Below are positions 9,457-40,964 of a stretch of DNA of 64,000 nucleotides, piece after piece; position 1 is the stretch's first letter; each line of letters starts with the position of its first letter. The position numbers were made by a program, and so were the translations under genes. This DNA is from Marinicella sp. GTDB lineage: Bacteria; Pseudomonadota; Gammaproteobacteria; Xanthomonadales; Marinicellaceae. The notes beneath the pieces are model-generated. The model was not told the DNA's origin. It searched no databases and worked only from the letters and a program-made list of their open reading frames with translations. Where the stretch lies: NCBI GenBank assembly GCA_965230295.1, contig OZ246001.1, forward strand, positions 3,616,001 through 3,680,000, in the 5' to 3' direction.

Positions 9457-10764
9457 ATGAGGCAAACATTTTTCGCCATTGTATATTTGGCATTTTATTC
9501 CCTGTCATTGGCATCTGAATCTGCAGAGCAAATGACAGTTAACCTCAAGTTTGAGGAAGCAATCAATACAGCGATCAGTAATGATCCTTGGCTTTTAGGT
9601 AGCATACATCAACAAAAGTCTTTGGATGCACTCAGCGTGTCTGCAGGACAACTGCCTGACCCCAAAGTGTCTGTCGGGCTGGTTAATTTGGCCACTGACA
9701 CATTTGATTTTAGCCAAGAAAGGATGACCCACCTCAAATTGGGTATCACCCAACAGTTTCCAAGAGGCGAAACCAGAAAACTCAGACAGGATCAACTGAA
9801 ACTGCACAGCAGTCAATTTCCTTTTCTGAGGGCGGATCGGATGGGGCAGATCACCATGCTGGTTGGCAATATTTGGTTGGATTTATACGAAACTCAAGAG
9901 AGCATACGCATCATCAAGGGCAGCCGACAGTTATTTGAAAACTTGGTAGAAATTGCCGAAAGCAGTTACAGCGCTGCCATTGCAAAGACCAATCAATTGG
10001 ACATCGTCCAAGCAGAACTGGAGTTGTCATTGCTAGATGACAGACTCGTTGTTTTGGAACAAAACCAACAAATGCATGTGGCTCAATTGTCTCGGTGGTT
10101 GGGACTAAATTTGGTTAAGAACAGCGCTGTTGATAGGCAGCTCCCTGACCTTAACCAGACTAACAACGAAGCCGTCGATTCAGGCCAATTCATGTATCAT
10201 CCAGCAGTCTTATCAGTTGATAAAAAAATTGAATCAGGTGTTGTCGACATTGAATTGGCTGAGCAACAATATAAACCTGCTTGGTCATGGAACATAGGCT
10301 ATGGATACCGAGACAGTGATCCTACTGGGTTTGACCGGTCTGATTTGCTTTCTGTGAATGTGAATTTTGACTTACCTCTGTTCACCAGTCATCGACAGGA
10401 TAAAGGGTTGGAGGCGGCTGTAGAGTCACACAATGCCTTATTGACAGAGAAAGAGGACATCCTCCGAAAGTTGATGGCTATTGACGAGGAAAATTCACAG
10501 GCACTTTGGGGATTGTCCAAAAGAGCCAAACTGTACCTCGAAGATCTGTTACCTCAGATCAATGATAGTGTAGAAATTGCACTGCGGGCTTACTCCAGTG
10601 ATGAAGGCACTTTCGATGATGTGATCAGGGCCCAAATTTCAAAATTAGATGCTTCTTTGCAATTGTTAAAAATCCAGGTTGAGACTCAAAAGCGGGCCTT
10701 GTCCATCAACTACGCTCGCATGAGTGAGGCAAACCATATGTTCTCAAGAGGAGGTGGCTCATGA
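9457..10764 (+). CDS. Outer membrane efflux protein (TolC/CusC-like)
   Basis: Signal peptide, LPDPKVSVG, coiled-coil OEP character; operon with cusB/cusA. Confidence 0.88.
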   Translation: MRQTFFAIVYLAFYSLSLASESAEQMTVNLKFEEAINTAISNDPWLLGSIHQQKSLDALSVSAGQLPDPKVSVGLVNLATDTFDFSQERMTHLKLGITQQFPRGETRKLRQDQLKLHSSQFPFLRADRMGQITMLVGNIWLDLYETQESIRIIKGSRQLFENLVEIAESSYSAAIAKTNQLDIVQAELELSLLDDRLVVLEQNQQMHVAQLSRWLGLNLVKNSAVDRQLPDLNQTNNEAVDSGQFMYHPAVLSVDKKIESGVVDIELAEQQYKPAWSWNIGYGYRDSDPTGFDRSDLLSVNVNFDLPLFTSHRQDKGLEAAVESHNALLTEKEDILRKLMAIDEENSQALWGLSKRAKLYLEDLLPQINDSVEIALRAYSSDEGTFDDVIRAQISKLDASLQLLKIQVETQKRALSINYARMSEANHMFSRGGGS

Positions 10765-12212
10765 AAAACATCATTAAATTCATGCTACCAGGTGTCCTAT
10801 TGGGTGTTTTGATCACCATGTCGATTTCAAAACTAACCAACCAATCTGAAGAAACATCAACAGAAGCGAAGCCACTTTATTGGGTCGCTCCGATGGATCC
10901 AGATTTTCGGCAAGACCAACCAGGCTTATCGCCCATGGGTATGGAATTGGTGCCAGTGTATGCCTCGGACTCGAGTGCAAAAGACAGTTCAGCGGGTGAA
11001 GTGTCCATCTCTTCAGTGGTTGCCAACAATTTGGGACTCAAGACTGCCATGGCCCGGGTAGGGCACCTCAAAGGTAAGATCAACACGGTAGGTATCATCC
11101 AATACGATGAAAACAAACTCCTGCATATTCATCCACGAGTCGAAGGCTGGATTGAGAAGCTTCATGTGAAATCAATGGGTGACCAAGTGGCCAAAGGGCA
11201 ATTATTGTATGAGATTTATTCGCCTGAATTGGTCAATGCACAAGAAGAATTTATATTGGCTTTAAAACGCAACAACACCGCATTGATCAAAGCATCTGAA
11301 GCACGTCTGAAATCCCTGCAAATTCCAATGGATGTGATTAATTTGATCAGAAAGCAAAGGGCGTCTGAGCAGACCATTCCATATTACTCACCACAGAAAG
11401 GAGTGATTGAACACATAGAAATCAGAGAGGGGTTCTTTGTTAAGCCCGGCACCACATTGATGTCAATTGCTGACTTAAGCAGCGTATGGGTAGAAGCCCA
11501 AGTTCTTAACTTCAATAAGCCAGATTTAATCACGGGCGCCATTGCGACCATGCGCCAGAAGGCATTTCCGAATCAAATTTGGCAAGGTGTGGTTGAGTAC
11601 ATCTATCCGTCATTGGATAGACAAACGCAAACGCTCAGGGCCCGTCTGACATTCCAAAATGATTCTGGCTTACTTAGACCCAACATGTTCGTAGATGTGG
11701 CTATTGATCAGCCTCAACTTGAAGCCTTGATCATCCCCAAAAATGCCCTGATTAGACTGGAGAACAGCCAGCGTGTGGTGATAAAAACAGACAATAATAG
11801 GTATAAATCGGTCAATGTATCCACAGGTGGTTATGATTCTGAGTTTATACAGATTACATCCGGCCTGTTACCGGGTGATGTTGTGGTGACTTCGGCCCAA
11901 TTTTTACTGGATTCAGAATCCAGCAAATCATCAGACTTTGATCGCATGAATCTGGGTGATATGGAAAATGTGGCTTTGACTTTTGGCACCATCAATGAAT
12001 TGGATGAACAAAACAGAACTTTGAACATCAGCCGGGATGGCATTGAAAAATGGAATCGACCACCTGCTACGTTGGATTTTTTTGTACCTGAACAAATTGA
12101 ATTTAACAAATTCCTGAAAGGGCAAAAACTGCAATTTTATTTTGAAATAAAAGATGGCGTTTTCTCTATCCTTCATGCTGATTTGGTGACAACAAGGAGT
12201 ATAGATTCATGA
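10761..12212 (+). CDS. cusB: Heavy-metal RND periplasmic adaptor with C-terminal CusF-like OB domain
   Basis: YWVAPMDP..PGLSPMGMELVP metal-binding domain; IYSPELVNAQEE; VTSAQFLLDSES. Confidence 0.88.
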   Translation: MKNIIKFMLPGVLLGVLITMSISKLTNQSEETSTEAKPLYWVAPMDPDFRQDQPGLSPMGMELVPVYASDSSAKDSSAGEVSISSVVANNLGLKTAMARVGHLKGKINTVGIIQYDENKLLHIHPRVEGWIEKLHVKSMGDQVAKGQLLYEIYSPELVNAQEEFILALKRNNTALIKASEARLKSLQIPMDVINLIRKQRASEQTIPYYSPQKGVIEHIEIREGFFVKPGTTLMSIADLSSVWVEAQVLNFNKPDLITGAIATMRQKAFPNQIWQGVVEYIYPSLDRQTQTLRARLTFQNDSGLLRPNMFVDVAIDQPQLEALIIPKNALIRLENSQRVVIKTDNNRYKSVNVSTGGYDSEFIQITSGLLPGDVVVTSAQFLLDSESSKSSDFDRMNLGDMENVALTFGTINELDEQNRTLNISRDGIEKWNRPPATLDFFVPEQIEFNKFLKGQKLQFYFEIKDGVFSILHADLVTTRSIDS

Positions 12213-15200
12213 TTGAAGCCGTGATCAAGTGGTCCATCAAACATCGTTTTCTGGTGTTGCTGGCCACTTTATTCATCATTGTTGGTGGGTTGTTTTCAGT
12301 CAAGCAAACACCCGTAGATGCAATCCCTGACTTGTCTGATGTTCAAGTGATTGTCAAAACCAGTTTTCCTGGCCAGTCACCTCAAGTGGTGGAAGATCAG
12401 GTCACATACCCATTAACCACGGCCATGCTAGCGGTACCTGGAGCGAAAACTGTCAGGGGCTTTTCATTTTTTGGTGACTCTTACGTCTACATCATTTTTG
12501 ATGAAGACACCGATTTATATTGGGCCAGATCCAGGGTTTTGGAGTATTTGAACCAGGCGGCATCACAGTTACCTCCGGAGGTTAAGCCACAACTGGGACC
12601 CGATGCCACCGGCGTGGGATGGGTCTATATTTATGCTTTGTCTGACCCAACCAACCAGTTAGACATCAGTGAACTCAGAAGTGCTCAGGATTGGTTTTTA
12701 AAATACGAATTACAAACCGTTGAAGGGGTCTCTGAAGTGGCGTCACTGGGCGGTATGGTCAAGCAGTACCAGATAGAGGTCAACCCCAATGCCCTCAGGG
12801 CTTTAAACATACCTTTGAACCATGTGGTTCAAGCCATCAAACAAGGCAGTCAAGAGGTGGGCGCTTCGGTGGTTGAAATGGCAGAGGCCGAATACATGAT
12901 CAATGCCACCGGGTACATCCAAAGTGTTGATGACCTGGAACATGTCCCCATTGGATTGAATCAAAATGGCGCGCCTTTGCTTTTACAAGACATCGCAGAC
13001 ATCAACATTGGACCTCAGATGAGAAGGGGTCTAGCTGATTTGAATGGGGACGGTGAAGTGGTTGGTGGCATTGTGGTCATGCGTTATGGAGAAAATGCCC
13101 AAGAAGTCATTGAGCGGGTAAAAACAAAACTGCAAGTTCTTGAAAAAAGCCTGCCAGAAGGTGTAACTGTTACCACAGTATATGACCGCAGTGATCTCAT
13201 CGTACGTGCTGTGAATAACCTGTGGGAGAAGCTCATTGAAGAGTTTCTGGTGGTCATTGGTGTTTGTCTGGTCTTTTTGTTTCATGTTCGTTCATCACTG
13301 GTTGCCATCATCAGTTTACCAGTGGGTATCCTTGCTGCCTTTATTGTCATGAACTTACAAGGACTCAATGCCAACATCATGTCTTTGGGTGGTATTGCCA
13401 TCGCCATCGGTGCCATGATTGACGGGGCCATTGTGATGATCGAAAACATGCACAAGCACATGGAAAAAACTGAACTCACTGATAAGAACCGGTGGCAAGT
13501 GGTGGCCAAATCTGCAGCTGAAGTCGGGCCTGCCTTATTTTTCAGCTTATTGATCATTACCGTCAGTTTCTTTCCAGTCTTTTCGCTGGAAGCTCAAGAA
13601 GGCCGCATGTTTTCACCGTTGGCATTCACCAAGACTTATGCCATGGCCGCTGCCGCCGCATTGGCCATTACATTGGTTCCGGTATTGATGGGGTATTTTG
13701 TGAGGGGGGAAGTAAGGGCTGAGCATAAGAACCCCATTAATCGTTTCCTGCTCAATTTGTATTTACCCGCATTGAAGGCTGCACTGCGCTTTCCCAAATC
13801 TACTTTGGTGCTTGCAGTTCTGATTCTTTTGATCAGTGCATGGCCAGTCCAAAAAATTGGCACCGAGTTCATGCCTCAATTGGATGAGGGCGATTTGATG
13901 TACATGCCTACCACTTATCCAGGCATTTCCATCGGAGAGGCTCGTGAGGTGTTGCAACAAACAGATAAATTGATTGCTACGGTTCCAGAAGTTAACACTG
14001 TTTTTGGCAAAATTGGCCGAGCTGAAACAGCCACTGATCCAGCACCGTTAACCATGATTGAAACCTTCATACAACTCAAGCCAAAGTCAGAGTGGCGTGA
14101 TGGCATGACAACCGATGTTCTTATCCAAGAATTGGACTCTCTGGTCAACATACCGGGTTTAACCAATGCCTGGGTCATGCCAATTAAGACCAGGATTGAT
14201 ATGTTGGCCACTGGCATCAAAACCCCGGTTGGCATCAAGGTAGCTGGACCCGATCTGGACACCATTCAAGCGATTGGGCAAGACATTGAATCAATCCTTA
14301 CTCAGGTTGAAGGAACTGCATCTGTGTATGCAGAAAGGGTCTCAGGAGGACGCTACCTGAAAATCGATATTGATCGATTGGCAGCAGCCAAATACGGATT
14401 GAATATCCAGGATGCTCAACAGTACATCAGCCTCGCTGTGGGTGGAAAAAACATTGCACAAAGTGTAGAAAAATTAGAAAGGTATCCAATCAACTTGCGA
14501 TTCCCGCAACACCTCAGGAATTCACCTGAGTCCATCTTAAGTTTGCCATTGATCACACCCACTGGGCAACACATTGCGCTGGGAGAAGTGGCTGATGTTT
14601 ATCTTGAAGACGGGCCACCTGGTATCAAAAGTGAAAATGCACGCATCAATGGTTGGGTTTATGTTGATATAGAAGACATCGATGTGGGCAGGTATGTTGA
14701 ACTGGCCAAAGCTTCGTTAGAAGACCATTTAACACTGCCGCCAGGTTATTCAATCACATGGTCTGGTCAATATGAATACATGTTGAGGGCAAAAGAAAAA
14801 TTGAGTTACTTGATTCCAATCACTTTAATGATCATTACCTTTTTGCTGTTCTTAAGCTTCAGAAGTTTTTTAGAAGTGGCCATTATTTTGGGCACCTTGC
14901 CTTTTGCTTTGGTGGGGAGCATTTGGTTGATGTATGGATTAGGTTTCAACTTTTCAGTGTCTGTGGGGGTTGGATTCATTGCATTGTCAGGCGTGGCAGT
15001 GGAAATAGGCGTCATTATGCTTAATTTTCTCAATAAAGGCTTTGATACACTTGAAGAGGCGCTAAATAAATCCAATAAGCGATTGACCAACGCGCATTTA
15101 AAGCAAGCTGTGATAGCAGGTTCCGGGATGCGGGTCAGGCCGGTGATGATGACTTCATTGTCAATCATTGTTGGACTTTTACCGATTCTATTCAGCGATG

Positions 15201-15328
15201 GTACCGGGTCTGAAGTGATGAGTCGAATCGCAGCACCCATGGTAGGCGGTATGATCAGTGCTTTGATTTTGACATTGATCGTTCTTCCAGTCATTTATTA
15301 CCTGACAAAAAGAATATGGATTAAATAA
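12209..15328 (+). CDS. cusA: Cu/Ag heavy-metal efflux RND permease
   Basis: DAIPDLSDVQVI, GPDATGVGW, LMYMP, TDPAPLTMIET, IKTRIDMLATG (the three CusA Met sites), RVRPVMMT. Confidence 0.95.
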   Translation: MIEAVIKWSIKHRFLVLLATLFIIVGGLFSVKQTPVDAIPDLSDVQVIVKTSFPGQSPQVVEDQVTYPLTTAMLAVPGAKTVRGFSFFGDSYVYIIFDEDTDLYWARSRVLEYLNQAASQLPPEVKPQLGPDATGVGWVYIYALSDPTNQLDISELRSAQDWFLKYELQTVEGVSEVASLGGMVKQYQIEVNPNALRALNIPLNHVVQAIKQGSQEVGASVVEMAEAEYMINATGYIQSVDDLEHVPIGLNQNGAPLLLQDIADINIGPQMRRGLADLNGDGEVVGGIVVMRYGENAQEVIERVKTKLQVLEKSLPEGVTVTTVYDRSDLIVRAVNNLWEKLIEEFLVVIGVCLVFLFHVRSSLVAIISLPVGILAAFIVMNLQGLNANIMSLGGIAIAIGAMIDGAIVMIENMHKHMEKTELTDKNRWQVVAKSAAEVGPALFFSLLIITVSFFPVFSLEAQEGRMFSPLAFTKTYAMAAAAALAITLVPVLMGYFVRGEVRAEHKNPINRFLLNLYLPALKAALRFPKSTLVLAVLILLISAWPVQKIGTEFMPQLDEGDLMYMPTTYPGISIGEAREVLQQTDKLIATVPEVNTVFGKIGRAETATDPAPLTMIETFIQLKPKSEWRDGMTTDVLIQELDSLVNIPGLTNAWVMPIKTRIDMLATGIKTPVGIKVAGPDLDTIQAIGQDIESILTQVEGTASVYAERVSGGRYLKIDIDRLAAAKYGLNIQDAQQYISLAVGGKNIAQSVEKLERYPINLRFPQHLRNSPESILSLPLITPTGQHIALGEVADVYLEDGPPGIKSENARINGWVYVDIEDIDVGRYVELAKASLEDHLTLPPGYSITWSGQYEYMLRAKEKLSYLIPITLMIITFLLFLSFRSFLEVAIILGTLPFALVGSIWLMYGLGFNFSVSVGVGFIALSGVAVEIGVIMLNFLNKGFDTLEEALNKSNKRLTNAHLKQAVIAGSGMRVRPVMMTSLSIIVGLLPILFSDGTGSEVMSRIAAPMVGGMISALILTLIVLPVIYYLTKRIWIK

Positions 15329-15419
15329 ATTAATTGGCACAACTGATTTTCACGCGGATCATACAATTGGTAGGTTTAAATTAAGTGCATGAATGATTTG
15401 GTTTGACCGGAGTATAGGT

Positions 15420-15668
15420 ATGATTAAAGCAGAAACTCAAAATGACATGAACGAAAAAACAGGAATTAATCTCCAAAAAGCCCTGAAATCTACCATATTG
15501 ATTGTATTTCTTACGGTTGTTTTCGGGGCTTTAAGTTATGGTTTCATCCTGTTAAATGCTTCTGTACTGCAACTGTCTTTACCTGGGAGCTTGTGGTGCG
15601 GTCTGGCCATGGCGTTGGCAGTTGGTTATTATTTGCTACAAAGAAAACCTAAAGACCCCGCAGAATAA
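15420..15668 (+). CDS. Small membrane protein, unknown function
   Basis: Two hydrophobic segments; GGAG upstream of ATG 15420; start uncertain. Confidence 0.55.
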   Translation: MIKAETQNDMNEKTGINLQKALKSTILIVFLTVVFGALSYGFILLNASVLQLSLPGSLWCGLAMALAVGYYLLQRKPKDPAE

Positions 15669-15693
15669 TTTGGTGTTTATTTGGGTTTCAGAA

Positions 15694-16326
15694 AGGAATG
15701 TTCTTGGGGCTTCATTCTGGTTCATGGTCTGACAGGTCTTCATATTTGCTGCGCAAATAAACCGACCTTTACAGACTATTGTCTGAGCAGTTGCTTCGCA
15801 CTGCATGTCTGTTCCTAACAAAAGTGAATGCGACTGCTTACATGGATGTAAGTATGCAGCGATAGCAGGCAGGAATTGTTCCCAACAATTCTCTGCATTC
15901 ACCCCGTCCTGGGGATCGATGCGGTAGCTGCCAAGGCGAACATGACATGCTACCTCGCACGCACTGCGGCATTCAAATCGGGCTTCTTTATCTTCGATAA
16001 AACCGCCCAACTTTCATTGCCTGTGCTATAACGCCATTCACATAAGGCTTCTTGACTTCGTCAAATCGCCACATGTTCATTGGCTATTCTCTTCGCCTCT
16101 GATTGGCTTACATGGAAGTAAGTCCTCTGAGGAGGCAGGATGCCGGTATCAGAGGTGACTACATGGATGTAGGTCTGCCGCGATAGCTAGGAGTGATAGC
16201 GGCCGCTATAACAAAAGCTCACGGCTAATCAATCATTACATCAAGGCTTCTTTGCTTTGCAAAATCGCCATGATTGCATGATTTGCCTAACCGGCTCGGC
16301 GGGTCAAGCTGCTTAGCAGCTTTCCT
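15694..16326. mobile_element. Modular hairpin-rich non-coding element, long copy (MITE-like)
   Basis: Shares its 5' end, a 154-bp core and a 42-bp 3' end with 40744-40964; AGGAA...TTCCT termini; many internal hairpins. Confidence 0.75.
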
Positions 16327-18370
16327 TGGTCGATTGCATATTGTCAATGAATGATACCAGTTCGTCTTTAGGGAGGGGTTTTGCGATAAAAAATCCTTGC
16401 ACAAAGTGAACACCTAACTCCATGGCTTCATCAAATTGTGCTTTGGTTTCTATGCCTTCAAGAACTGTGGTGTGATTCAGGTTGTTGCTGAGATCTATGC
16501 AAGATTTCAGTAGTTTTGAACCTTCTTTAATTTGTAATTGATTGCTGAAGTCAATGTCGTATTTAACGCCGTTGATGTTGAGTTTTGCCAACATTGACAA
16601 TGCTGAAAAGCCTGAGCCAAAATCATCCAGAAAAACTTTAAGTCCACAGTCATTCAAGATTTTCAAATGCTGATTGATGGTTTGTTCTTCAAAGACCGCT
16701 TGATTTTCCAGTATTTCAATACAGAATGTGTGCTTGGCTTTGTCATGCATGTCCACTAAAAAATCAACGAAATCTCGTTCCAACAAGGACCTGGGGGAGA
16801 TGTTGATTGAAATTTCTAGCGCTGAAAACCTATTTGGCCAGTCATGTGATTGCTTAACAGCCCGTTTAACCACCCAACGATCAATGTCAGTGGACAGACC
16901 AACTTCAGATAACATATTGATGAATGTTGGTAATTGGATGTTGCCGTGCTTATCCTCCAGTCGCAGTAAGGCTTCCACTTTGGCTACCTGATTGGTTTTT
17001 AAGTCAATGATGGGCTGATAATAAAGCATCAATTTACCGTGTGATAAAGCCAACAAAAATGAATTGATTTCGTTTTCAAATTCTAAGTTTTTCATCAAAG
17101 AGCGCTGGTTGCGGTATTGCAGTGCTTGGATTTTCCTGGATTCTAAATTAAATTTATGAACAAAATCCTTAACCAGGCCTTCATCCAGATGTGAGGCTTC
17201 CAACATCTTCAAGAACTTAAGGTAAATCAAGACACCCAGCACCAAGTTTAATAATTGTAAAATGACAGCAAACCAATCTCCGCCAGTGGCCAAAAAGACA
17301 TTAATAAAAGGTGGTGTCGTCCAAGGCACAGCCACCACCACTGGAGAAACCAGACCCATGCTCATGAATAAATAGGTGTTCAAATACAGAAGGATAGGAA
17401 CAAATACAAACGGTACAAATAAAAATGGATTGAAGACTATCGGCAGGCCATAGTGAATGATTTCTGAGATGTTGAAAGTACATGGCAGCACCGATAATTT
17501 GGCAACCCGTTGATTCCTGCTTGATTTTGAAAATAACAGGATGGCTATCAACAAACACATGGCTGAACCAGCGCCACCAATGTCTGTGAAGTAATAATTG
17601 CCTGGTACATTGATGTGAGGAATGCTGTTACCTGCCACATGGGCTGCTTGATTGGCAGCAAAAGCATGAAAATACGGATCCTGCATGAAAGCAAAAACGT
17701 GTGACGGATTGACCCCAAAGAACCAAGTTAGTTTATAAATGAACTTGATGATAACTAAACCAATCAGGTTACCGGTGTCTTCAATTTCAAAATTAGCGAG
17801 GAAACCAGATTCAGACAATGTCCACCACATGGCCTCAAAAAACATCAACAGAAAAAAGACCAATACAAATGTAATCGCTGTAGGAATGATGTAGTTAAAT
17901 GTCTTGTTTAAATGAAGCGACATGAAATCTGCATTAAAAATATGCATGCTGTGTTTGGTCGTGAAATACCTGAGTGCAGTTGCCGTTAAATAACACAATG
18001 GAATGGGTATGACCTTAAAATAGGTTGATGATTTCAATTGTTGTAGAGTTTCTACTTCACCAACAACAGAAAGTGTTAACAAACTCACACAAATGATGAC
18101 CAAAGATGTCGGATCCACTTCTTTACTTTTGGCAAATGAAACTGAAAGACTGACAGTAAAAATCAGTGGGAAGAACAGATAAAAAAATTGGTAAATATTC
18201 AGAATGATATCAAGAGAAGGTGAATCTGTTATTAAAGACAAGCCTTCATAAAGCATCAGCAACAGTGTCACTGTAAGAATCATGGGGACCAAAGAAATTG
18301 AAGCATCCTGCAATGCAATGATGCTTCTGCTTTTATTTAAACGATTTAAAACAGAACTGAATTGTCCCAC
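16313..18370 (-). CDS. PTS EIIC (cellobiose/lactose-type) membrane domain fused to an EAL c-di-GMP phosphodiesterase
   Basis: TWFFGVN, IGGAGS, FNISEIIHYGLPIVFNP and VPWTTPPFI (EIIC); YQPII, VEALLR, DDFGSG, EGIET and QGF (EAL). Confidence 0.9.
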   Translation of the reverse strand: MGQFSSVLNRLNKSRSIIALQDASISLVPMILTVTLLLMLYEGLSLITDSPSLDIILNIYQFFYLFFPLIFTVSLSVSFAKSKEVDPTSLVIICVSLLTLSVVGEVETLQQLKSSTYFKVIPIPLCYLTATALRYFTTKHSMHIFNADFMSLHLNKTFNYIIPTAITFVLVFFLLMFFEAMWWTLSESGFLANFEIEDTGNLIGLVIIKFIYKLTWFFGVNPSHVFAFMQDPYFHAFAANQAAHVAGNSIPHINVPGNYYFTDIGGAGSAMCLLIAILLFSKSSRNQRVAKLSVLPCTFNISEIIHYGLPIVFNPFLFVPFVFVPILLYLNTYLFMSMGLVSPVVVAVPWTTPPFINVFLATGGDWFAVILQLLNLVLGVLIYLKFLKMLEASHLDEGLVKDFVHKFNLESRKIQALQYRNQRSLMKNLEFENEINSFLLALSHGKLMLYYQPIIDLKTNQVAKVEALLRLEDKHGNIQLPTFINMLSEVGLSTDIDRWVVKRAVKQSHDWPNRFSALEISINISPRSLLERDFVDFLVDMHDKAKHTFCIEILENQAVFEEQTINQHLKILNDCGLKVFLDDFGSGFSALSMLAKLNINGVKYDIDFSNQLQIKEGSKLLKSCIDLSNNLNHTTVLEGIETKAQFDEAMELGVHFVQGFFIAKPLPKDELVSFIDNMQSTKESC

Positions 18371-34723: not shown

Positions 34724-35857
34724 ATGACAATAAATACAACTGAATCCTGTAAGTTCCTATCTTCTGAAAATGATTCAAAAATAGCTGGCAACGTATTGAT
34801 TACTATAGTTATATGTTTGTGTTTTGCGTTTGACACTGTTGCAGAACAGCCTTTTCAAGTGGATGTGATGTATCCAGAGAGGATTGAACAAAGCCAAATC
34901 ATCAAGCTACCTGGTACCATCCAAGCCAAACAACACGCACAACTGGCTTCATTAGAATCAGGGCGGGTGGAGAGTTTGGCAGTTGAAGTGGGCGATGTCG
35001 TCAATAAAGGTCAGGTGTTGCTGATTTTGGAAAGTCAGTTGGCAGAGTTGGAAGTCACCGGAGCCTTGGCAGAAGTCAAAGCTGCAGAGCTGAACTTGCA
35101 AGAAGCCAAGCGATTGTATGGTGAGGTGCAAAAATTATCAGTCCAACAAGCCGTCGCCAAGACATTAATCGCAGAACGGGCTGCCTTGTTGGCCAATGCT
35201 GAAGTTGAGCTGGCCAGGGTCAAAGCCAATCACAATATTCAGCAAGAACGACTGAATCGGCACCGTCTAAAAGCGCCATTCACAGGAGTTATTGCTGAAA
35301 GAAATGTAGATGTGGGTGAGTGGATCACACCACAAAATTCAGTACTGACTTTGGTGGCACAAAACGATTTAAGACTGGCCATTGAGGTCCCTCAACAACA
35401 TTACAACACACTGCGAGCTATCAACGATGTGAAGGTCAGGGTGATTCCAGATACTGCAGGAATCGAATCCATTTCTGCCACGTTAAGTCGGCTGGTACCA
35501 GTCTCCGATTTCCAAACACGTACTTTTTCAGCGCAAATAGATTTGCCTGTTGTGGCATCGAATGGATGGGTTCCAGGCATGTCAGCCCAAGCAGAGCTCT
35601 CGTTTCCTGACAGTGAACAATCAGCCATCATCTTGCCTCGTTCAGCGATCAAACAACATCCAGATGGGAACAGCAGTGTTTTTGTGGTTGATAACAATCA
35701 GGCCAGAAGATTGGTCACAGCATTCACTTCTTTACCAAACAATCAAGTGGCCATATATGGACAACCTGCCAATCAAGCCTATATAGTCAGTGGCGTAGAG
35801 TTGTTAAGAGAAGGGTCAACCATCGTGGCGAATGTGATACAAAATGAACCACAATGA
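34724..35857 (+). CDS. RND efflux periplasmic adaptor subunit
   Basis: GRVESLAVEVGDVV.KGQ, LKAPFTGVI, VDVGEW. Confidence 0.9.
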   Translation: MTINTTESCKFLSSENDSKIAGNVLITIVICLCFAFDTVAEQPFQVDVMYPERIEQSQIIKLPGTIQAKQHAQLASLESGRVESLAVEVGDVVNKGQVLLILESQLAELEVTGALAEVKAAELNLQEAKRLYGEVQKLSVQQAVAKTLIAERAALLANAEVELARVKANHNIQQERLNRHRLKAPFTGVIAERNVDVGEWITPQNSVLTLVAQNDLRLAIEVPQQHYNTLRAINDVKVRVIPDTAGIESISATLSRLVPVSDFQTRTFSAQIDLPVVASNGWVPGMSAQAELSFPDSEQSAIILPRSAIKQHPDGNSSVFVVDNNQARRLVTAFTSLPNNQVAIYGQPANQAYIVSGVELLREGSTIVANVIQNEPQ

Positions 35858-38800
35858 TTGAGTCCACAGTCAAACGCGGTATTTTAGTTACAGTGCTGGT
35901 GCTGATCACCTGTATCCTTGGGGTGGTGGCCTCCATCAAAATTCCGGTACAAATGATCCCTGATTTAGAAGTCAGGACCATCACCGTTCAAACCGGTTGG
36001 CCTGGTGCCACGCCACAAGACGTTGAAAAGGAAATCCTGATCGAACAAGAGCGGTACTTACGAAGCTTGCCCAACTTAAAACGCATGATTTCATCGGCAG
36101 GCATGGGATCGGCCAGAATCGAATTGGAGTTTCCATTTGGGGTTGATGTCAATGAAGCATTGATCAGGGTCAGTAATGCCCTCAGCCAAGTACCTGCCTA
36201 TCCAGAAAATGTGGATCAACCCAGGTTGTTTTCAAGTTCTTTTTCTAGCAATGCTTTCATGTTTTTCCGCTTGGTTCCCTTGCCAGACAATCCAATGCAG
36301 CTGGATATTGATATGTTGCGTGATTTTGCCGATGACTACATCCGCCCCAGAATGGAAAGTGTTCCAGGTGTTTCACAAGTGGATGTGCGCGGTGGTGCGG
36401 CTCGACAAATTCAAATCAAATTGGACATGGTCCAGTTGGCTCAACGCGGTATCAGTCTCAGCCAAGTAAGGGAAGCCATTCGATCAAGAAATTCCGATGC
36501 CTCAGCCGGTGACCTGGAAAGTGGAGAAAGTCGATATTTGTTGCGAGTGATTGGTCGTTTCGATCAACTTGATGACCTGGAAAATCTGATCATAGATCGC
36601 AATGAAAACAGTACATTGTTACTCAAAGACATTGCAGAAATCACTTTGGACCATTATGAAACCAGAAGCCTTTCTTTTGCCGATGGTCAACGCAGCTTGT
36701 CTCTTTCTGTGCGACGTGAAAGTGGTTCTAATGTGATTGCCATCAAGGAGTCTTTACTGCCTGTAGTGGATGAGTTGAATGCATCATTGTTGGTCCAAAA
36801 TGGACTTAAATTAACTTTGTCCAGTGATGATGTTCAGTATGTATCCAATTCATTGGAAAATGTGTGGTTTAACCTGGCCCTAGGGGCCTTATTGGCGACA
36901 CTGGTGATGTTTTTTTTCCTGCGCTCAGGACAATCTACTTTGATAGGTGTATTGGGTATTCCAGTTTGTACCATTGCTGCTTTTTTGGCATTGTTGGCCT
37001 TCGATCGAACCATCAATGTGATTTCTTTGGCAGGCGTGGCATTTGCCATAGGAATGACGGTAGACAACACCATTGTGGTGTTGGAGTCGATCATGCAATT
37101 CCGCAAAAAAGGGCACAGCCGCTATCAGGCGGCGGTGGCAGGGGTACAAGAGGTTTGGCCAGCTGTGTTGGCATCAACCACCACCACCGTTTTGGTCTTT
37201 GCACCGATTCTGTTCATTGTACAAGAGGCGGGTCAACTGTATTCAGACATAGCCATTGCGATTTCAGGGGCCATTGTGGCTTCAATGCTGGTGGCAATCT
37301 TTGTAATCCCTGTGGCGATGGCCAATCTTGGAAAGGAACACTATACCCCGGGTAAATCATTACAATTGGGCCGAGGCTGGATGCGCTTGGTGGGAATTTT
37401 TACTGTCAGTCAGCAGCGGGCTCGTTTACTTTCTGTGGGATTTTTAGCGGTTATTTTAGGCAGCGCCTATGTTTTGATGCCACCTGCAGAATATTTGCCT
37501 GAAGGAGAGGAACCCAAGGCCTTCTCAATGATGTTCGCACCACCCAGTTATAACTTGTCTGAAATGGAAGCCATCGGCGCAGACTTACGTGAATACTTCG
37601 AACCTTATCTCCATGCTGAACCGGAAGCCTTTGAGTCAGGTGAGACCAACATGCCGCCATTGGCTTACTACAGCATGTCCATATCGATCGGTCGAATCTG
37701 GTTTCTCAGTGCTCCTGTGGAACCTAATAACATCCATGCCATGATGGACGCCATCACTGAAAAATTCAGAAGTTATGAAAATATGCGGGCATTTTCTTCA
37801 CGTGGCTCGATCATTTCCAGTAATGATGGAGGCACCCGAGCAGTGGCTGTGGATTTGTCAGGCAGCATAATTACAGATTTATATGCTGCCGCAGAAGCGG
37901 TTTATGCCGAAGCTGAACATGTATTTGAACAACCACAAATCAATTCTGATCCCAGTTCGCTGACTCTCGATCAGCCCTTGATAGAAATTCGACCCCGTTG
38001 GCAAAGGCTGGCTGAGTTGGGTATCAGTAACCGTGAATTTGGTTATGGAGTGGCCACCATCAGTGACGGCGCTTATGTCGATGAATTCATCTTGAATGAC
38101 GATAAAGTGGACATCTTTTTGTTCAGTGGTGCCGGTAACCAGCAAACCATTGAGGCTCTGGCTGCCGCACCATTGACTTTACCTCAAGGCGGAATCATTC
38201 CTTTGAATGCAGTGGCCGATTTGGTAGAAAGTAAGAACAGCGATTCAGTTCGCCGAGTGGATGGTAGACGCACAGTAACTGTTTATATCATTCCCCCTCG
38301 TGAGGTTGCTTTAGAAACCGCAGAAGCCAAGGTTCGTAATGAATTATTGCCTACCTTATGGCAACAAGGTCACATTGCTCAAGGTGTTAACGTCAGCATC
38401 AGTGGTGCTGCCGACCAATTAGAATCAACCAAAGCTTCACTTTCCAGTAACTTTTTGGTGGCCATTGTGCTTTGTTATTTACTTCTTGTGGCAATATTCA
38501 CCCATTGGCGTTTTCCTTTATTTATTTTGGCCACAGTACCACTTGGAATGGCAGGTGGGTTGTTGGGTTTGATTGCCGTCAATGGTGTTATTGCAGTATT
38601 AGGCACCTTAGGTTTTGGTGGTGCACATCAACCCTTCGATATGATTACCATGCTGGGGTTTCTGATCTTACTGGGCACTGTGGTGAACAACCCGATCCTC
38701 ATTGTCGACCAAACCAGACGTTTCCTTGATCAAGGTCAAAATGTACAAAATGCCGTCCGTCAGGCCGTGCAGAAACGCCTTAAACCCATATTGATGTCAA

Positions 38801-38982
38801 CCGCAACAACCATCTTCGGTTTGGCTCCATTGGTGCTGATACCAGGGGAGGGTACCGAATTATATCGTGGTGTTGGTGTGATTGTGATGTGCGGGATCTT
38901 CGTTTCAACTGTCCTCAGTTTGACCTTCTTGCCTGCCTTGTTGATGGGGTTGTTGCGTGATAGAGTAAAACCCAATCATTAA
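35854..38982 (+). CDS. RND efflux permease (AcrB/AcrD/AcrF family)
   Basis: 1042 aa, WPGATPQDVE, GMTVDNTIVVLE, VVNNPILIV, RLKPILMS. Confidence 0.93.
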   Translation: MIESTVKRGILVTVLVLITCILGVVASIKIPVQMIPDLEVRTITVQTGWPGATPQDVEKEILIEQERYLRSLPNLKRMISSAGMGSARIELEFPFGVDVNEALIRVSNALSQVPAYPENVDQPRLFSSSFSSNAFMFFRLVPLPDNPMQLDIDMLRDFADDYIRPRMESVPGVSQVDVRGGAARQIQIKLDMVQLAQRGISLSQVREAIRSRNSDASAGDLESGESRYLLRVIGRFDQLDDLENLIIDRNENSTLLLKDIAEITLDHYETRSLSFADGQRSLSLSVRRESGSNVIAIKESLLPVVDELNASLLVQNGLKLTLSSDDVQYVSNSLENVWFNLALGALLATLVMFFFLRSGQSTLIGVLGIPVCTIAAFLALLAFDRTINVISLAGVAFAIGMTVDNTIVVLESIMQFRKKGHSRYQAAVAGVQEVWPAVLASTTTTVLVFAPILFIVQEAGQLYSDIAIAISGAIVASMLVAIFVIPVAMANLGKEHYTPGKSLQLGRGWMRLVGIFTVSQQRARLLSVGFLAVILGSAYVLMPPAEYLPEGEEPKAFSMMFAPPSYNLSEMEAIGADLREYFEPYLHAEPEAFESGETNMPPLAYYSMSISIGRIWFLSAPVEPNNIHAMMDAITEKFRSYENMRAFSSRGSIISSNDGGTRAVAVDLSGSIITDLYAAAEAVYAEAEHVFEQPQINSDPSSLTLDQPLIEIRPRWQRLAELGISNREFGYGVATISDGAYVDEFILNDDKVDIFLFSGAGNQQTIEALAAAPLTLPQGGIIPLNAVADLVESKNSDSVRRVDGRRTVTVYIIPPREVALETAEAKVRNELLPTLWQQGHIAQGVNVSISGAADQLESTKASLSSNFLVAIVLCYLLLVAIFTHWRFPLFILATVPLGMAGGLLGLIAVNGVIAVLGTLGFGGAHQPFDMITMLGFLILLGTVVNNPILIVDQTRRFLDQGQNVQNAVRQAVQKRLKPILMSTATTIFGLAPLVLIPGEGTELYRGVGVIVMCGIFVSTVLSLTFLPALLMGLLRDRVKPNH

Positions 38983-39318
38983 AGGTTGATTAACCTACAA
39001 AGGCTCATTACACGTACTGTGATGATCATGTAGCCAATCAGATCAACTGTCGAGACACAACAGTCCTCATTCATTTCTACTGTTGTGAATTATTCACAGT
39101 TAACACGATCCAAAATGATGATTCAGACATCGATGTTTTCTTGTTATGTGGGAATTAATTGACAATTTTTTAAGAATTTCCCCATATCCAAAACCGGCCA
39201 CAATACTTCAAATTAAGTTGATCAAGCGTCTTTTTGTGACATGGAATATATACATGTATGCAAAATAAGCCAACATTTCAAGGCTGTAATGCTTGATTCA
39301 ACTATTGAGGAGGCATTT

Positions 39319-40584
39319 ATGAAAAACATACATTTATTAGCAACGAAGCCAAGAAAGAAGGACAGAAAAATCTCATCTTACGATGCAATGAATCTGTTTA
39401 AATTGATCAAGTTAAGTTTTGTTTTATTGGCTTTATTTTTTCCGTATACTGTTATGGCACAGAATGATTGCAGATGGGCTGGAACAGCACCTAGCTGCAA
39501 CGGTTCTTGCAATGCTGGTGAAAGTGAGATCACGAGATTGAGTTTTCTACCTGGTGGGTACCCGCCGTATTACTATGGTCCTGATTTCGGTAAGCCATGT
39601 ATTTCTGGGTCAAAAGCATTGTGCTGTAAGACTCCTGGCAGATCCTGTCGCTGGGATGGCACAGCCCCTTTTTGCGAAGGATCCTGTAATGCTGGTGAAA
39701 AAGTATCCCAACCACCAGCGGGTTCATCCAGTGGAAAAGCTTGTTGGACGGGCAAAAAGGTGTATTGTTGTCGTTCGACAGGTTCCAGTCAATCACCGCT
39801 AACGGCCAAGTCTGAAAAACCACTGTACGCTGCCATTTGGGAAAAAGGTGATGGTACTGCCTGGGTGGCTCGCCACGACATGACTCCCAAAAAATACCAA
39901 CAAGAATTTGATCACTGGGTGAAAAAAGGTTTTCGACTGGTTGATGTCAGTGGCTTCAGTGTGGGTGGTCAACAACGTTTTGCAGCCATCTGGGAGAAAA
40001 GCAATGGACCGGCTTGGCTGGCCCGACACGGCATGGATTCTGCACAATACCAACAGGCGTTTAACAAATGGACTCAAAAGGGTTACCGCTTGTCCCATGT
40101 CAGTGGCTATGGCGTTGGTAGCGAAGACCGTTATGCGGCCATTTGGGAAAAACGCAAAGGCAAGCCTTGGGTGGCTCGTCATGCCATGACTTCGGCCAAA
40201 TACCAGCAAGAATTCAACAAATGGACCAAGAAGGGCTACCGCTTAATTCATGTCAGTGGCTACAACGCCGGCGGTGAAGACCGTTATGCGGCCATATGGG
40301 AAAAAAGCAAAGGGCCTAAATGGAAAGCAAGACACGGTATGACCTCTGAGCAATACCAGAAAGAATTCAACAAGGTGACGAAAAAGGGCTACCGCCTGAC
40401 CCACATCAGTTCTTGGCGTTCCGGCAAAACCAATCGCTACGCAGCCATATGGGAAAAAGACAAAGGTCCTGGCTGGGTGGCACGTCATGCCATGACTTCA
40501 GCCAAATACCAGCAAGAATTCAACAAATGGACCCAAAAAGGCTATCGACCCAAGGACGTCAGTGGCAGCAAACGAGCAGAATGA
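39319..40584 (+). CDS. Secreted protein with two Cys-rich WxGTAPxCxGxC modules and five ~51-aa bacterial tandem repeats (BTRD1/polyglycine-hydrolase-like)
   Basis: GAGGAGG RBS; hydrophobic signal segment; YAAIWEK..G..W.ARH.MT...YQ..F..W.KKGYRL..VSG repeated five times. Confidence 0.8.
   Translation: MKNIHLLATKPRKKDRKISSYDAMNLFKLIKLSFVLLALFFPYTVMAQNDCRWAGTAPSCNGSCNAGESEITRLSFLPGGYPPYYYGPDFGKPCISGSKALCCKTPGRSCRWDGTAPFCEGSCNAGEKVSQPPAGSSSGKACWTGKKVYCCRSTGSSQSPLTAKSEKPLYAAIWEKGDGTAWVARHDMTPKKYQQEFDHWVKKGFRLVDVSGFSVGGQQRFAAIWEKSNGPAWLARHGMDSAQYQQAFNKWTQKGYRLSHVSGYGVGSEDRYAAIWEKRKGKPWVARHAMTSAKYQQEFNKWTKKGYRLIHVSGYNAGGEDRYAAIWEKSKGPKWKARHGMTSEQYQKEFNKVTKKGYRLTHISSWRSGKTNRYAAIWEKDKGPGWVARHAMTSAKYQQEFNKWTQKGYRPKDVSGSKRAE
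39826..40566 (+). repeat. Intragenic tandem repeat, about 153-bp unit, five copies
   Basis: Near-identical blocks, e.g. CGTCATGCCATGACTTC.GCCAAATACCAGCAAGAATTCAACAAATGGACC at about 40177 and 40483. Confidence 0.85.
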
Positions 40585-40743
40585 TCATCCATTGATCAAC
40601 TCGTCATTTAAATGGACAGTCATCCAATCACTAAAATCCTGTTTAAACAGAAATACAGTGCATGTAGAATTTTAGGAGCGGGTGGCTGTCCTTGATGAGG
40701 AAAGTTACCGTCCAACAGTGTATAATCATATGAAACACTATAA

Positions 40744-40964
40744 AGGAATGTTCTTGGGGCTTTACTGCAATTGTTCCAAACAATTCTCTGCATTCACCCC
40801 GTCCTGGGGATCGATGCGGTAGCTGCCGAGGTGAACATGACAGGCTACCTCGCACGCACTACGGCATTCAAATCGGGCTTCTTTATCTTCGATAAAACCG
40901 CCAACCTTTCATCACCTGCGCTGCCTAACCGGTTCGGTGGGTCATGCTGCTCAGCAGCTTTCCT
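40744..40964. mobile_element. Modular non-coding element, short copy
   Basis: Same termini and core as 15694-16326 but lacks both internal expansions. Confidence 0.75.

Follow-up and report, generated by a model that had tools for sequence, protein, structure and literature searches.

Five hairpins of one pattern, four of them close together in a single intergenic spacer, occur in a stretch of 64,000 nucleotides of a Marinicella sp. genome (contig OZ246001.1, positions 3,616,001 to 3,680,000), referred to here as the window. Our analysis identifies them as copies, or in one case a relative, of a structured interspersed repeat comparable to the repetitive extragenic palindromic (REP) and BOX elements of other bacteria, a reading to which we give a probability of roughly 0.9. 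The family is lineage-specific, being found in Marinicellaceae, Wenzhouxiangellaceae and allied gammaproteobacteria, and no named family fits it. A first-pass annotation of the window had described a free-standing motif of 25-33 nt repeated four times; what it had seen is in fact the core of a 66-70-nt unit belonging to this dispersed, lineage-wide family.

Hairpins in the window

The regular expression GG(N)C-TTC-N13-23-AYC-G(N)CC retrieved exactly five matches over the window, all on the + strand, the strand on which the hairpins had first been noted (the noted strand below). These are hairpin 1 at 15735-15767 (outer arms GGTC/GACC, loop TGC), hairpin 2 at 15981-16007 (loop TTC), hairpin 3 at 16046-16070 (loop TTC), hairpin 4 at 16245-16269 (loop TTT) and hairpin 5 at 40876-40902 (loop TTC). 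The same five places, with these stems and triloops and with internal loops of TTC facing ACC or ATC, had been reported by the first-pass annotation, and the expression found no other in the window. A tighter pattern, GGCTTCTTN{7,15}AAAYCGCC, gave four window matches against 0.00 expected from 100 shuffles. Hairpins 1 to 4 are part of a mosaic element (element A, 15692-16326) and hairpin 5 is part of a shorter one (element B, 40742-40964), both described further below.

The covariance model that had been proposed as a check was built from family copies and finds four of the five hairpins: searched over the whole window with filters off, it recovers hairpins 2-5 at 41-78 bits, which amounts to four canonical units in these 64 kb. 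Two instances have to be read with care. The recurrence at 40876-40902 is real, but it lies within a 154-nt duplicate of the block that holds hairpin 2, so hairpin 5 adds no independent evidence. Hairpin 1 has the core but not the conserved flanks, and the model misses it at E<=10; it is a diverged relative of the unit and is kept here only as such.

Structure and covariation of the unit

Thirty-four distinct units from 21 sources were aligned on the strand complementary to the noted one. The unit is a long irregular hairpin of 66-70 nt with four helices. P1 is GCGC/GCGC and P2 is GGCA/UGCC, followed by an internal loop; P3 has 5-8 variable pairs ending in GGC/GCC and leads into a 2x2 loop, GR/AA; P4 starts with U.G, U-A and U-A, continues with 3-5 variable pairs and is closed by an apical loop of 3-4 nt. 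The 5' half of the consensus on the selected strand is Y-A-[GCGC]-A-[GGCA]-internal loop-[5-8 variable pairs ending in GGC]-GR-[UUU + variable stem]-loop, and the 3' half is [variable stem + AAG]-AA-[GCC + variable pairs]-loop-[UGCC]-GUn-[GCGC]-GUG. Sequence conservation is concentrated in the purine-rich internal loops, and the stems and apical loop vary. The four covarying helices provide a sharp structural model.

Covariation was tested against 500 shuffles and against slid registers. Over the 19 pairs of P2-P4, 86.7% of cells are paired, compared with 65.0% after shuffling, a value that none of the 500 shuffles (0/500) reached. Double-change cells number 130 against a shuffled mean of 41.8, compensatory change is seen at 16 of the 19 pairs against a mean of 12.0, and slid registers pair only 33-50% of cells. 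Because GGC/GCC and UU/AA were set by the search pattern, and matches were retained for their perfect inner stems, a recount was made on the nine pairs outside both the pattern and the stem filter; the scores of model-added units still drew on these pairs, which leaves some bias. The recount gave 74.8% of cells paired against 51.3%; double changes numbered 79 against 29.2, the covariation score was 0.608 against 0.211, and slid registers paired only 31-42% of cells. These controls do not fully remove the relatedness among units. P1, for which a flexible register was allowed, has four Watson-Crick pairs in 19 of 34 units, with the compensated variants GCAC/GTGC, GAGC/GCTC and GGGC/GCCC. Pairing of all the helices is under selection. 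The selection on structure that had been read from five hairpins is borne out by this far larger alignment, in which the helices covary and the GR/AA internal loop is invariant.

The family in other genomes

Species-representative genomes were scanned with a hairpin pattern that left the stem letters free (canonical form GGCTTCTT/AAAYCGCC) and required a TTY loop; the figures given are for the matches listed, and the window's own genome is not among them. At least 116 pattern matches were obtained in at least 114 loci. Among those listed, 59 have arms of equal length and 19 are perfectly paired, against 0.41 expected for random arms. The paired matches together with neighbouring copies make up at least 20 loci, labelled Wenzhouxiangella (11), Marinicella (3, from M. 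sediminis F2 and one metagenome-assembled genome, MAG), Lysobacterales MAGs (3), an Ectothiorhodospiraceae MAG (1) and Pseudomonadota MAGs (2). In the NCBI taxonomy, Marinicella belongs to Lysobacterales and Wenzhouxiangella to Chromatiales.

Flanks lying outside the search pattern are common to the loci and read, on the noted strand, ...CACGCGC-n-ACGGCaTTC-n5-[core]-n6-TCaTTGCC-TGCGCT; the same flanks surround hairpin 2 of the window. With a covariance model derived from 31 copies (R1), real units reach 30-82 bits and chance matches to the pattern stay below 28 bits, and the other 94 loci could be used as background because the chance matches there score below real units. Unit G+C is 0.43-0.52 in the window and 0.63-0.70 in the Wenzhouxiangella loci, and the sequence core is kept across these genera. 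Stems can differ widely within one genome, as seen for loci L036 and L082 of the same MAG.

At the Rfam gathering score no match was found in the window, and the at least 20 loci matched only 5S and large-subunit rRNA, outside the units; when the limit was relaxed to E<=10 over 15600-16400, the sole match was SNORD47 (16.3 bits, E 5.7). By blastn, element A had no match in plasmids or phages, and a Wenzhouxiangella tandem pair had none in plasmids. No published description of the repeat family was found in a literature search that was not exhaustive.

Arrays, insertions and junctions

Units occur singly or in head-to-tail arrays, whose period is 66 nt (three copies in L106 and four in L053), 64 nt (pairs in L026 and L068) or 69 nt (a pair in L068). 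The densest loci hold up to six units in 2.4 kb (L053) and five units (L068), and both unit orientations are present within one locus in L025, L053, L082 and L068. The units stand in unrelated housekeeping surroundings: in L011 and L019 they lie downstream of 5S rRNA, and elsewhere they are found between folK and pgi, following a glutamine-synthetase-type gene, upstream of COQ7, and beside bipA or msrB, and no gene family recurs among the 137 open reading frames (ORFs) around the at least 20 loci. In L011 (1-300) and L019 (1960-2390), from MAGs of different labelled taxa, the units lie between a 5S terminator and a second 5S 3' end with its terminator hairpin; the cause may be an old arrangement common to both or a hotspot hit repeatedly.

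The clearest insertions are found in a transposase ORF of the IS91 family of insertion sequences (IS; Y2_Tnp, L068:1-1488). It carries five units at three sites and in both orientations, and none of them is present in 8 of 8 homologues of 63-84% identity. Two 69-nt units make up an insertion of 46 residues, a single unit in the opposite orientation makes up another of 22 residues, and a unit pair stands near the C-terminus, after which the frame ends. In related IS copies from other MAGs the C-terminal site is occupied by one or the other type of unit, and a further unit lies just beyond the gene. Two partial IS copies are linked by units in L026.

The flanks of about 14 units and of the L068 insertions showed no consistent target duplication, with three to four flank pairs sharing 3-4 nt and the rest none; the L068 junctions are not placeable to the base without empty-site DNA. 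The unit boundaries are Y^AGCGCAGG on the 5' side and GCGCGTG^ on the 3' side. Copies of the unit insert, amplify in tandem, recombine and decay.

An IS91-family element (ISCR2/ISVsa3-like, 61-64% identity) in Wenzhouxiangella-type MAGs was observed to hold units at at least four different sites (L068 1-1500, L026 1960-2330, L041 1970-2060 and L088 270-355), and the unit type at one site varies by MAG. Possible reasons are a hotspot, a functional link, or sampling skewed by an IS present in many copies. Where an open frame passes through units, as in the 124-aa ORF at 15636-16010 of the window and the segments that units contribute to the L068 transposase ORF, it risks being taken for coding sequence. 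A further model, R2, lets annotators mask or label units in Marinicella, Wenzhouxiangella and their relatives.

Strand of the selected fold

The first-pass annotation had drawn attention to how the loops read on the minus strand, aptly as it turned out, since wobble pairs place the selected fold on the complement of the noted strand. In 33 of 34 units the base of P4 reads C.A on the noted strand and U.G on the complement. Leaving this fixed position aside, the seven pairs outside GGC/GCC that form the P3 extension were scored in 30 distinct units; 24 of their wobbles are pairs on the complement alone and 4 on the noted strand alone. Folding energies point the same way: in 42 of 43 units the fold on the complement is the more stable one, by a mean of 6.5 kcal/mol (Wilcoxon p 1.2e-8). 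A comparison of DNA and RNA folding on each strand had been suggested, and under both parameter sets it is the complement that is more stable (34 of 34 units with RNA parameters; 31 of 34, with one tie, with DNA parameters). As wobbles and fold energies both favour the complement, the selected fold is assigned to the - strand of the window. The canonical unit around hairpin 2, for instance, has an RNA fold of -29.0 kcal/mol on the - strand against -20.3 kcal/mol on the + strand.

For the intact window units, z-scores with RNA parameters range from -3.7 to -6.0 on the - strand and from -3.2 to -4.2 on the + strand; with DNA parameters the window units reach -2.3 to -2.8 and -1.1 to -2.7, respectively. 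The whole spacer (region A) has an RNA z-score of -8.1 on the - strand versus -3.1 on the + strand.

Orientation relative to neighbouring genes was counted using only Pfam- or Rfam-supported neighbours whose 3' end faces the unit cluster. The noted strand is in sense in six cases (the resistance-nodulation-division (RND) operon and the BTRD1-repeat gene of the window, the 5S rRNAs of L011 and L019, folK of L029 and Gln-synt of L056) and the complement in five (the EAL gene of the window, SDF of L011, the acyltransferase of L036, msrB of L063 and bipA of L069). Units inside transposase genes are split evenly, three in each orientation. From these two counts it follows that the selected fold is not tied to host-gene transcription.

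Propagation as a proposed source of the constraint

The fold is kept on one strand whatever the direction of the genes, and insertion leaves no target duplication; taken together, these results suggest that the constraint is set by propagation. One strand would fold as a single-stranded DNA (ssDNA) intermediate and be recognised at the invariant GR/AA loop together with the G-C and U/T.G pairs on either side of it; of the variable stems nothing but pairing would be required. The recognising enzyme would work in trans, the foremost candidate being an HUH-type transposase, and hairpins in transcripts would be a by-product. The ssDNA/HUH route is favoured because of the analogy with REPs and their REP-associated tyrosine transposases (RAYTs), and because C-GNA-G triloops occur in units whose loops were not forced by the search pattern: among the model-only units plus hairpin 1, there are five cases of C-GCA-G and one of C-GAA-G. 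That GAA loops prevail in the full set (15 of 33 units scored) is uninformative, since the pattern forced a TTY loop. RAYTs are described as binding and cleaving REP DNA (PMC4690160), and GCGNAGC as an extraordinarily stable DNA mini-hairpin (PMC13037366). We hold the ssDNA/HUH mechanism only tentatively, on the doubtful side of even; the explanation as a whole, a repeat family with its mode of propagation, comes to a little under even odds.

Several points weigh against this explanation. The sample is biased, as hits with perfect inner stems were kept, and identical units on one multicopy IS inflate the Wenzhouxiangella count. The wide differences among stems of a single genome would also fit site-by-site selection for a host function. 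With DNA parameters the folds of the window units only modestly beat shuffles, the z-scores being stronger with RNA parameters, and RNA accommodates wobble pairs far better than DNA does. Neither a Y1 nor a Y2 transposase was found among the 43 window ORFs, and among the 137 ORFs around the at least 20 loci there is no Y1_Tnp, the only Y2_Tnp matches being the genes that the units interrupt. IS200/IS605-type elements prefer the lagging-strand template. GC skew is positive along the window, which makes the + strand the leading strand and puts the selected fold off the lagging-strand template; the fold of the window units is on the strand opposite to the IS200/IS605 expectation, a comparison that involves two independent clusters only. 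The resemblance to REPs is also incomplete. The unit is 66-70 nt long with four helices, whereas a REP has 20-40 nt and one helix, and it lacks a fixed GTAG/CGTC tag: the linker between P2 and P1 starts with GT in 19 of 34 units, makes GTAG with the neighbouring bases in 3 of 34 and contains CGTC in 6 of 34.

A more specific proposal would make the unit a new class of non-autonomous single-strand hairpin transposon, a REP-like superfamily without the GTAG/CGTC tag, recognised at its invariant GR/AA purine loop with the closing U/T.G pair and mobilised in trans; the HUH enzyme concerned might be the Y2 (IS91-family) transposase. No fewer than four separate insertions of units are found in the gene for this transposase and its 3' flank. 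We know of no description of a small hairpin element dependent on a rolling-circle (IS91/ISCR-type) transposase, a point at which no literature search was aimed. We consider this proposal improbable.

The unit as a possible RNA module

In the main rival reading the unit would act as a transcribed RNA module, in which the complementary-strand hairpin, with its GR/AA loop closed by U.G, would bind an RNA-binding protein or an RNase and so influence how stable neighbouring transcripts are and how they are processed or terminated, a role also suggested for REP and BOX RNAs. The wobbles of G.U type are frequent and strand-specific (24 versus 4, with 29 wobble cells in the nine outer pairs), and the z-scores, stronger with RNA than with DNA parameters, include the contrast of -8.1 and -3.1 between the strands of region A. 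Conservation sits in the internal loops while the stems and apical loop vary, most copies are intergenic and near gene ends, and the - strand form of element A would fall in the 3' untranslated region of the EAL gene. Against this, the orientation counts (6 versus 5, and 3 versus 3 within genes) mean that roughly half of all copies would take the weaker of the two folds in sense RNA, and element B has no upstream - strand gene. No Rfam family matches the unit at the gathering score or at E<=10. On the - strand, elements A and B share no promoter-like site: the promoter scan gave one such site inside the right module of A, and its -35 and -10 are not kept in B. Units also insert into and break coding sequence, and the copy in element B is decaying.

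We regard the RNA module as unlikely, although the evidence does divide: C-GNA-G triloops and independence of gene orientation lean to ssDNA, and the G.U-type wobbles and RNA z-scores lean to RNA. The first-pass annotation had spoken of a protein-recognised ssDNA or RNA motif. The structure is upheld, recognition by a protein is no more than inferred, and ssDNA and RNA are not told apart decisively.

Mosaic elements A and B

The spacer 15669-16312 is intergenic and lies between an RND efflux operon plus a 91-aa ORF on the + strand and a convergent gene on the - strand. The operon comprises OEP (9457-10764), CusB/HlyD-type (10761-12212) and AcrB-type (12209-15328) genes; the 91-aa ORF (15393-15668, + strand) has no Pfam family, and the convergent gene, at 16313-18370 on the - strand, encodes PTS_EIIC and EAL domains.

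Element A consists, in order, of a left module, hairpin 1, a segment shared with M. sediminis, a 154-nt block with unit 2, unit 3, hairpins with GGA in the loop, unit 4 and a right module. The left end module (15692-15718, + strand) has its first 21 nt identical in element B and is recognisable in the M. sediminis element at L069. Hairpin 1 with its outer arms occupies 15722-15780. It is followed by a segment outside any hairpin unit (15781-15835) that is near-identical in the M. sediminis element. The 154-nt block (15874-16027) is duplicated at 40769-40922 with 94% identity, and its 3' half is unit 2 (15958-16027, - strand), a canonical unit with helices P1-P4 around the core of hairpin 2. 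Adjoining it is unit 3 (16033-16084, - strand, around hairpin 3), which has P2-P4 without P1. Unit 4 (16220-16289, - strand, around hairpin 4) is of a "terminal" type that stands beside the right module in L063 and L069 too. The right end module (16284-16326) has its own covarying hairpin at 16306-16322.

Element B has a left module at 40742-40768, the 154-nt block at 40769-40922 and a right module at 40922-40964. Its unit 5 (40853-40922, - strand) is a copy of unit 2 whose outer helices have decayed: pairing is lost in P2 and P3, and the fold is no better than shuffles (z -1.0 to +0.5). The two elements match exactly over 21 nt on the left and at 91% identity over 43 nt on the right, each module having two window matches against 0 expected. 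Element A has the form of the ends and 154-nt block of element B plus about 410 nt of further modules, the conserved ends enclosing a variable number of inner units, three (and one diverged) in A and one in B. Both end modules are also present in L069, and the right end additionally in L063 and L106. The mosaic element of M. sediminis at L069 has the same left module, a near-identical 55-nt inner segment, a unit of the type of unit 4 and the same right module; in a Marinicella MAG, the arrangement of a unit plus right module occurs twice.

Hairpin 1 represents a 38-nt presence/absence difference between the window and M. sediminis, in whose element the inner hairpin and 3' arm are absent. In the extra segment, the 3' arm was seen to be an imperfect inverted copy of the sequence directly upstream. 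Hairpin 1 could have arisen by fold-back or template switch, or the difference could be due to a deletion in the other lineage.

Some further observations concern the end modules and their surroundings. The hairpin of the right module is also found at 40944-40960 and in the right modules of L069, L063 and L106. Over these five copies it shows three compensated positions (AAGCTGC/GCAGCTT, GAGCTGA/TCAGCTC, GAGCCGA/TCGGCTC), and it is followed by TCC-rich sequence, not by a T-run. The EAL gene has its stop codon (16313-16315, - strand) within the right module of A, and the last codons of that ORF are therefore read from repeat sequence. In the left module AGGA is directly followed by ATG, opening short frames at 15698-15760 and 40748-40822 of the window and at about 2297-2247 (- strand) of L069. 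Read by eye, these give MFLGLHS... (20 aa) in A, MFLGLYC... (24 aa) in B and MILGLHS... (16 aa) in M. sediminis; they are probably non-coding, as they diverge past seven residues and the spacing between Shine-Dalgarno sequence and ATG is too short. Operons of RND efflux type (9457-15328 and 34724-38982) lie upstream of both mosaic elements, and with two cases this may be chance: element A begins 364 nt past the AcrB-type gene with one small ORF between, and element B begins about 1.8 kb past another with one gene between. A gene at 39241-40584 contains five tandem 153-nt repeats at 39823-40563 (61-73% identity to the reference copy), which encode five BTRD1 (polyglycine-hydrolase-like structural repeat) domains and are an ordinary coding repeat.

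Small-RNA, duplex and chance readings

The make-up of the mosaic elements allows them to be read as + strand small-RNA genes of Marinicella, with the left module as 5' end, the right-module hairpin as terminator and the units as structural modules or passengers; the RNA of element A might then titrate CsrA/RsmA. The GGA-loop hairpins of element A (15837-15852, 16107-16122 and 16159-16172, + strand) form a second kind of module, and all three present UACAUGGAUGU or UACAUGGAAGU with GGA in the loop. These motifs match 10 and 9 of the 12 positions, including ACA and GGA, of the CsrA consensus RUACARGGAUGU obtained by systematic evolution of ligands by exponential enrichment (PMC4347634). The GGA motifs have a probability of being unpaired of 0.91-0.99, and the M. 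sediminis element has GGAUGGAGGAG at the corresponding place. In addition, the upstream neighbour points into the left module in 3 of 3 known cases (elements A and B and L069), and the right-module hairpin covaries over its five copies. Yet GGA is not enriched (9 versus 8.1 expected in A and 2 versus 2.4 in B), element B has no GGA hairpin, and the motif TACATGGAWGTA is absent from all 114 loci listed. The supposed terminator hairpin leads into TCC-rich sequence with no U-tract, and the scan calls no terminator there. For the units themselves the better fold is on the opposite strand, and in other genera they are found without such elements around them. We rate a small-RNA function as very unlikely.

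The units could also be double-stranded or cruciform sites of a host DNA-binding protein, for instance one that is nucleoid-associated or topology-related. BIMEs, the bacterial interspersed mosaic elements built of REPs, bind gyrase and IHF, the units are palindromic, intergenic and clustered like them, and the symmetry of such sites would explain paired arms. It would not account for wobbles that are strand-specific (24 versus 4) or for conserved asymmetric internal loops, and we view this reading as highly improbable.

That the hairpins are chance inverted repeats, ordinary intrinsic terminators or coding remnants is next to impossible: terminator hairpins are expected in an AT-rich spacer between convergent genes, but four matches were found where 0.00 were expected, and 19 perfect stems against 0.41 among the matches listed.

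Three particular candidates were tried and rejected. As regards intrinsic terminators, the sole terminator-like site in 15300-16500, at 15787-15804, is not a unit, and the units have no T-run and are followed by mixed sequence. Coding sequence was rejected because the varying stem length (cores of 25, 27 and 33 nt) shifts the reading frame; the 124-aa - strand ORF at 15636-16010 has no Pfam match. In integron attC sites, complementary R'' (RYYYAAC) and R' (GTTRRRY) core sites stand at the base of the hairpin. The right module has GCCTAAC, but no matching GTTAGGC follows it on that strand; the base of the unit is GCGC/GCGC, and no cassette ORFs or integrase were found.

Comparison with known repeat systems

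REP, BOX, enterobacterial repetitive intergenic consensus (ERIC) and Rickettsia palindromic elements (RPE) shape bacterial genomes, seed rearrangements, alter mRNA fate, add peptide segments and act as typing markers. For most small structured repeats the propagation mechanism and partner protein are not known. With a core shared across genera, four covarying helices and clear insertions in a transposase gene, the present family offers a tractable case in which strand, molecule and recogniser can be approached.

In its behaviour the family resembles REPs and BIMEs. Stenotrophomonas is placed in the order Lysobacterales. REPs with RAYTs are known in this genus (PMC3686654). REPs and BIMEs are described as imperfect palindromes, mostly extragenic with some intragenic copies, clustered and reiterated in tandem with flanking DNA; their structure is kept by compensatory change, no target is duplicated, and the families are restricted to lineages (PMC3733652). 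The unit family shares the palindromic form, the mostly extragenic position with some intragenic copies, the clustering and tandem reiteration along with flanking DNA, the compensatory change, the lack of target duplication and the restriction to a lineage. Besides the differences in size and tag given above, arrays of units are head-to-tail, whereas REPs mostly form inverted dimers, and no RAYT gene was found in either set of ORFs, the 43 of the window or the 137 near the at least 20 loci.

The BOX element of Streptococcus pneumoniae has the form boxA-boxB(n)-boxC, in which end modules surround a variable number of hairpin-forming inner modules. By this description elements A and B are alike in being modular (A-B(n)-C), intergenic and non-coding. 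They differ in that BOX belongs to another phylum, the inner unit is also found alone without end modules in other genera, and element A holds other module types.

RPEs are palindromic repeats inside protein-coding genes, to which they add peptide segments, the frame not always being destroyed. The units of L068 resemble them, two copies of 69 nt adding 46 residues and one unit adding 22. The frame, however, is not systematically kept in our family, since the array periods are 64, 66 and 69 nt and the ORF of L068 is ended by its C-terminal pair, and most copies are intergenic.

The miniature inverted-repeat transposable elements known as MITEs are likewise small, non-coding and dispersed, and present at some sites and absent at others. 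A MITE of DDE type would differ from the unit, which shows no target duplication, has as its terminal inverted repeat only the 4-bp P1 (GCGC/GCGC) and could be assigned no parent IS. In palindrome-associated derivatives of IS200/IS605, a single-stranded hairpin is recognised and no target is duplicated. The unit agrees in the latter point and, if the ssDNA recognition proposed for it is right, in the former; the replication strand of the window fold is the opposite of that expected for such derivatives. The unit family is thus one of small structured interspersed repeats and stands outside any named one.

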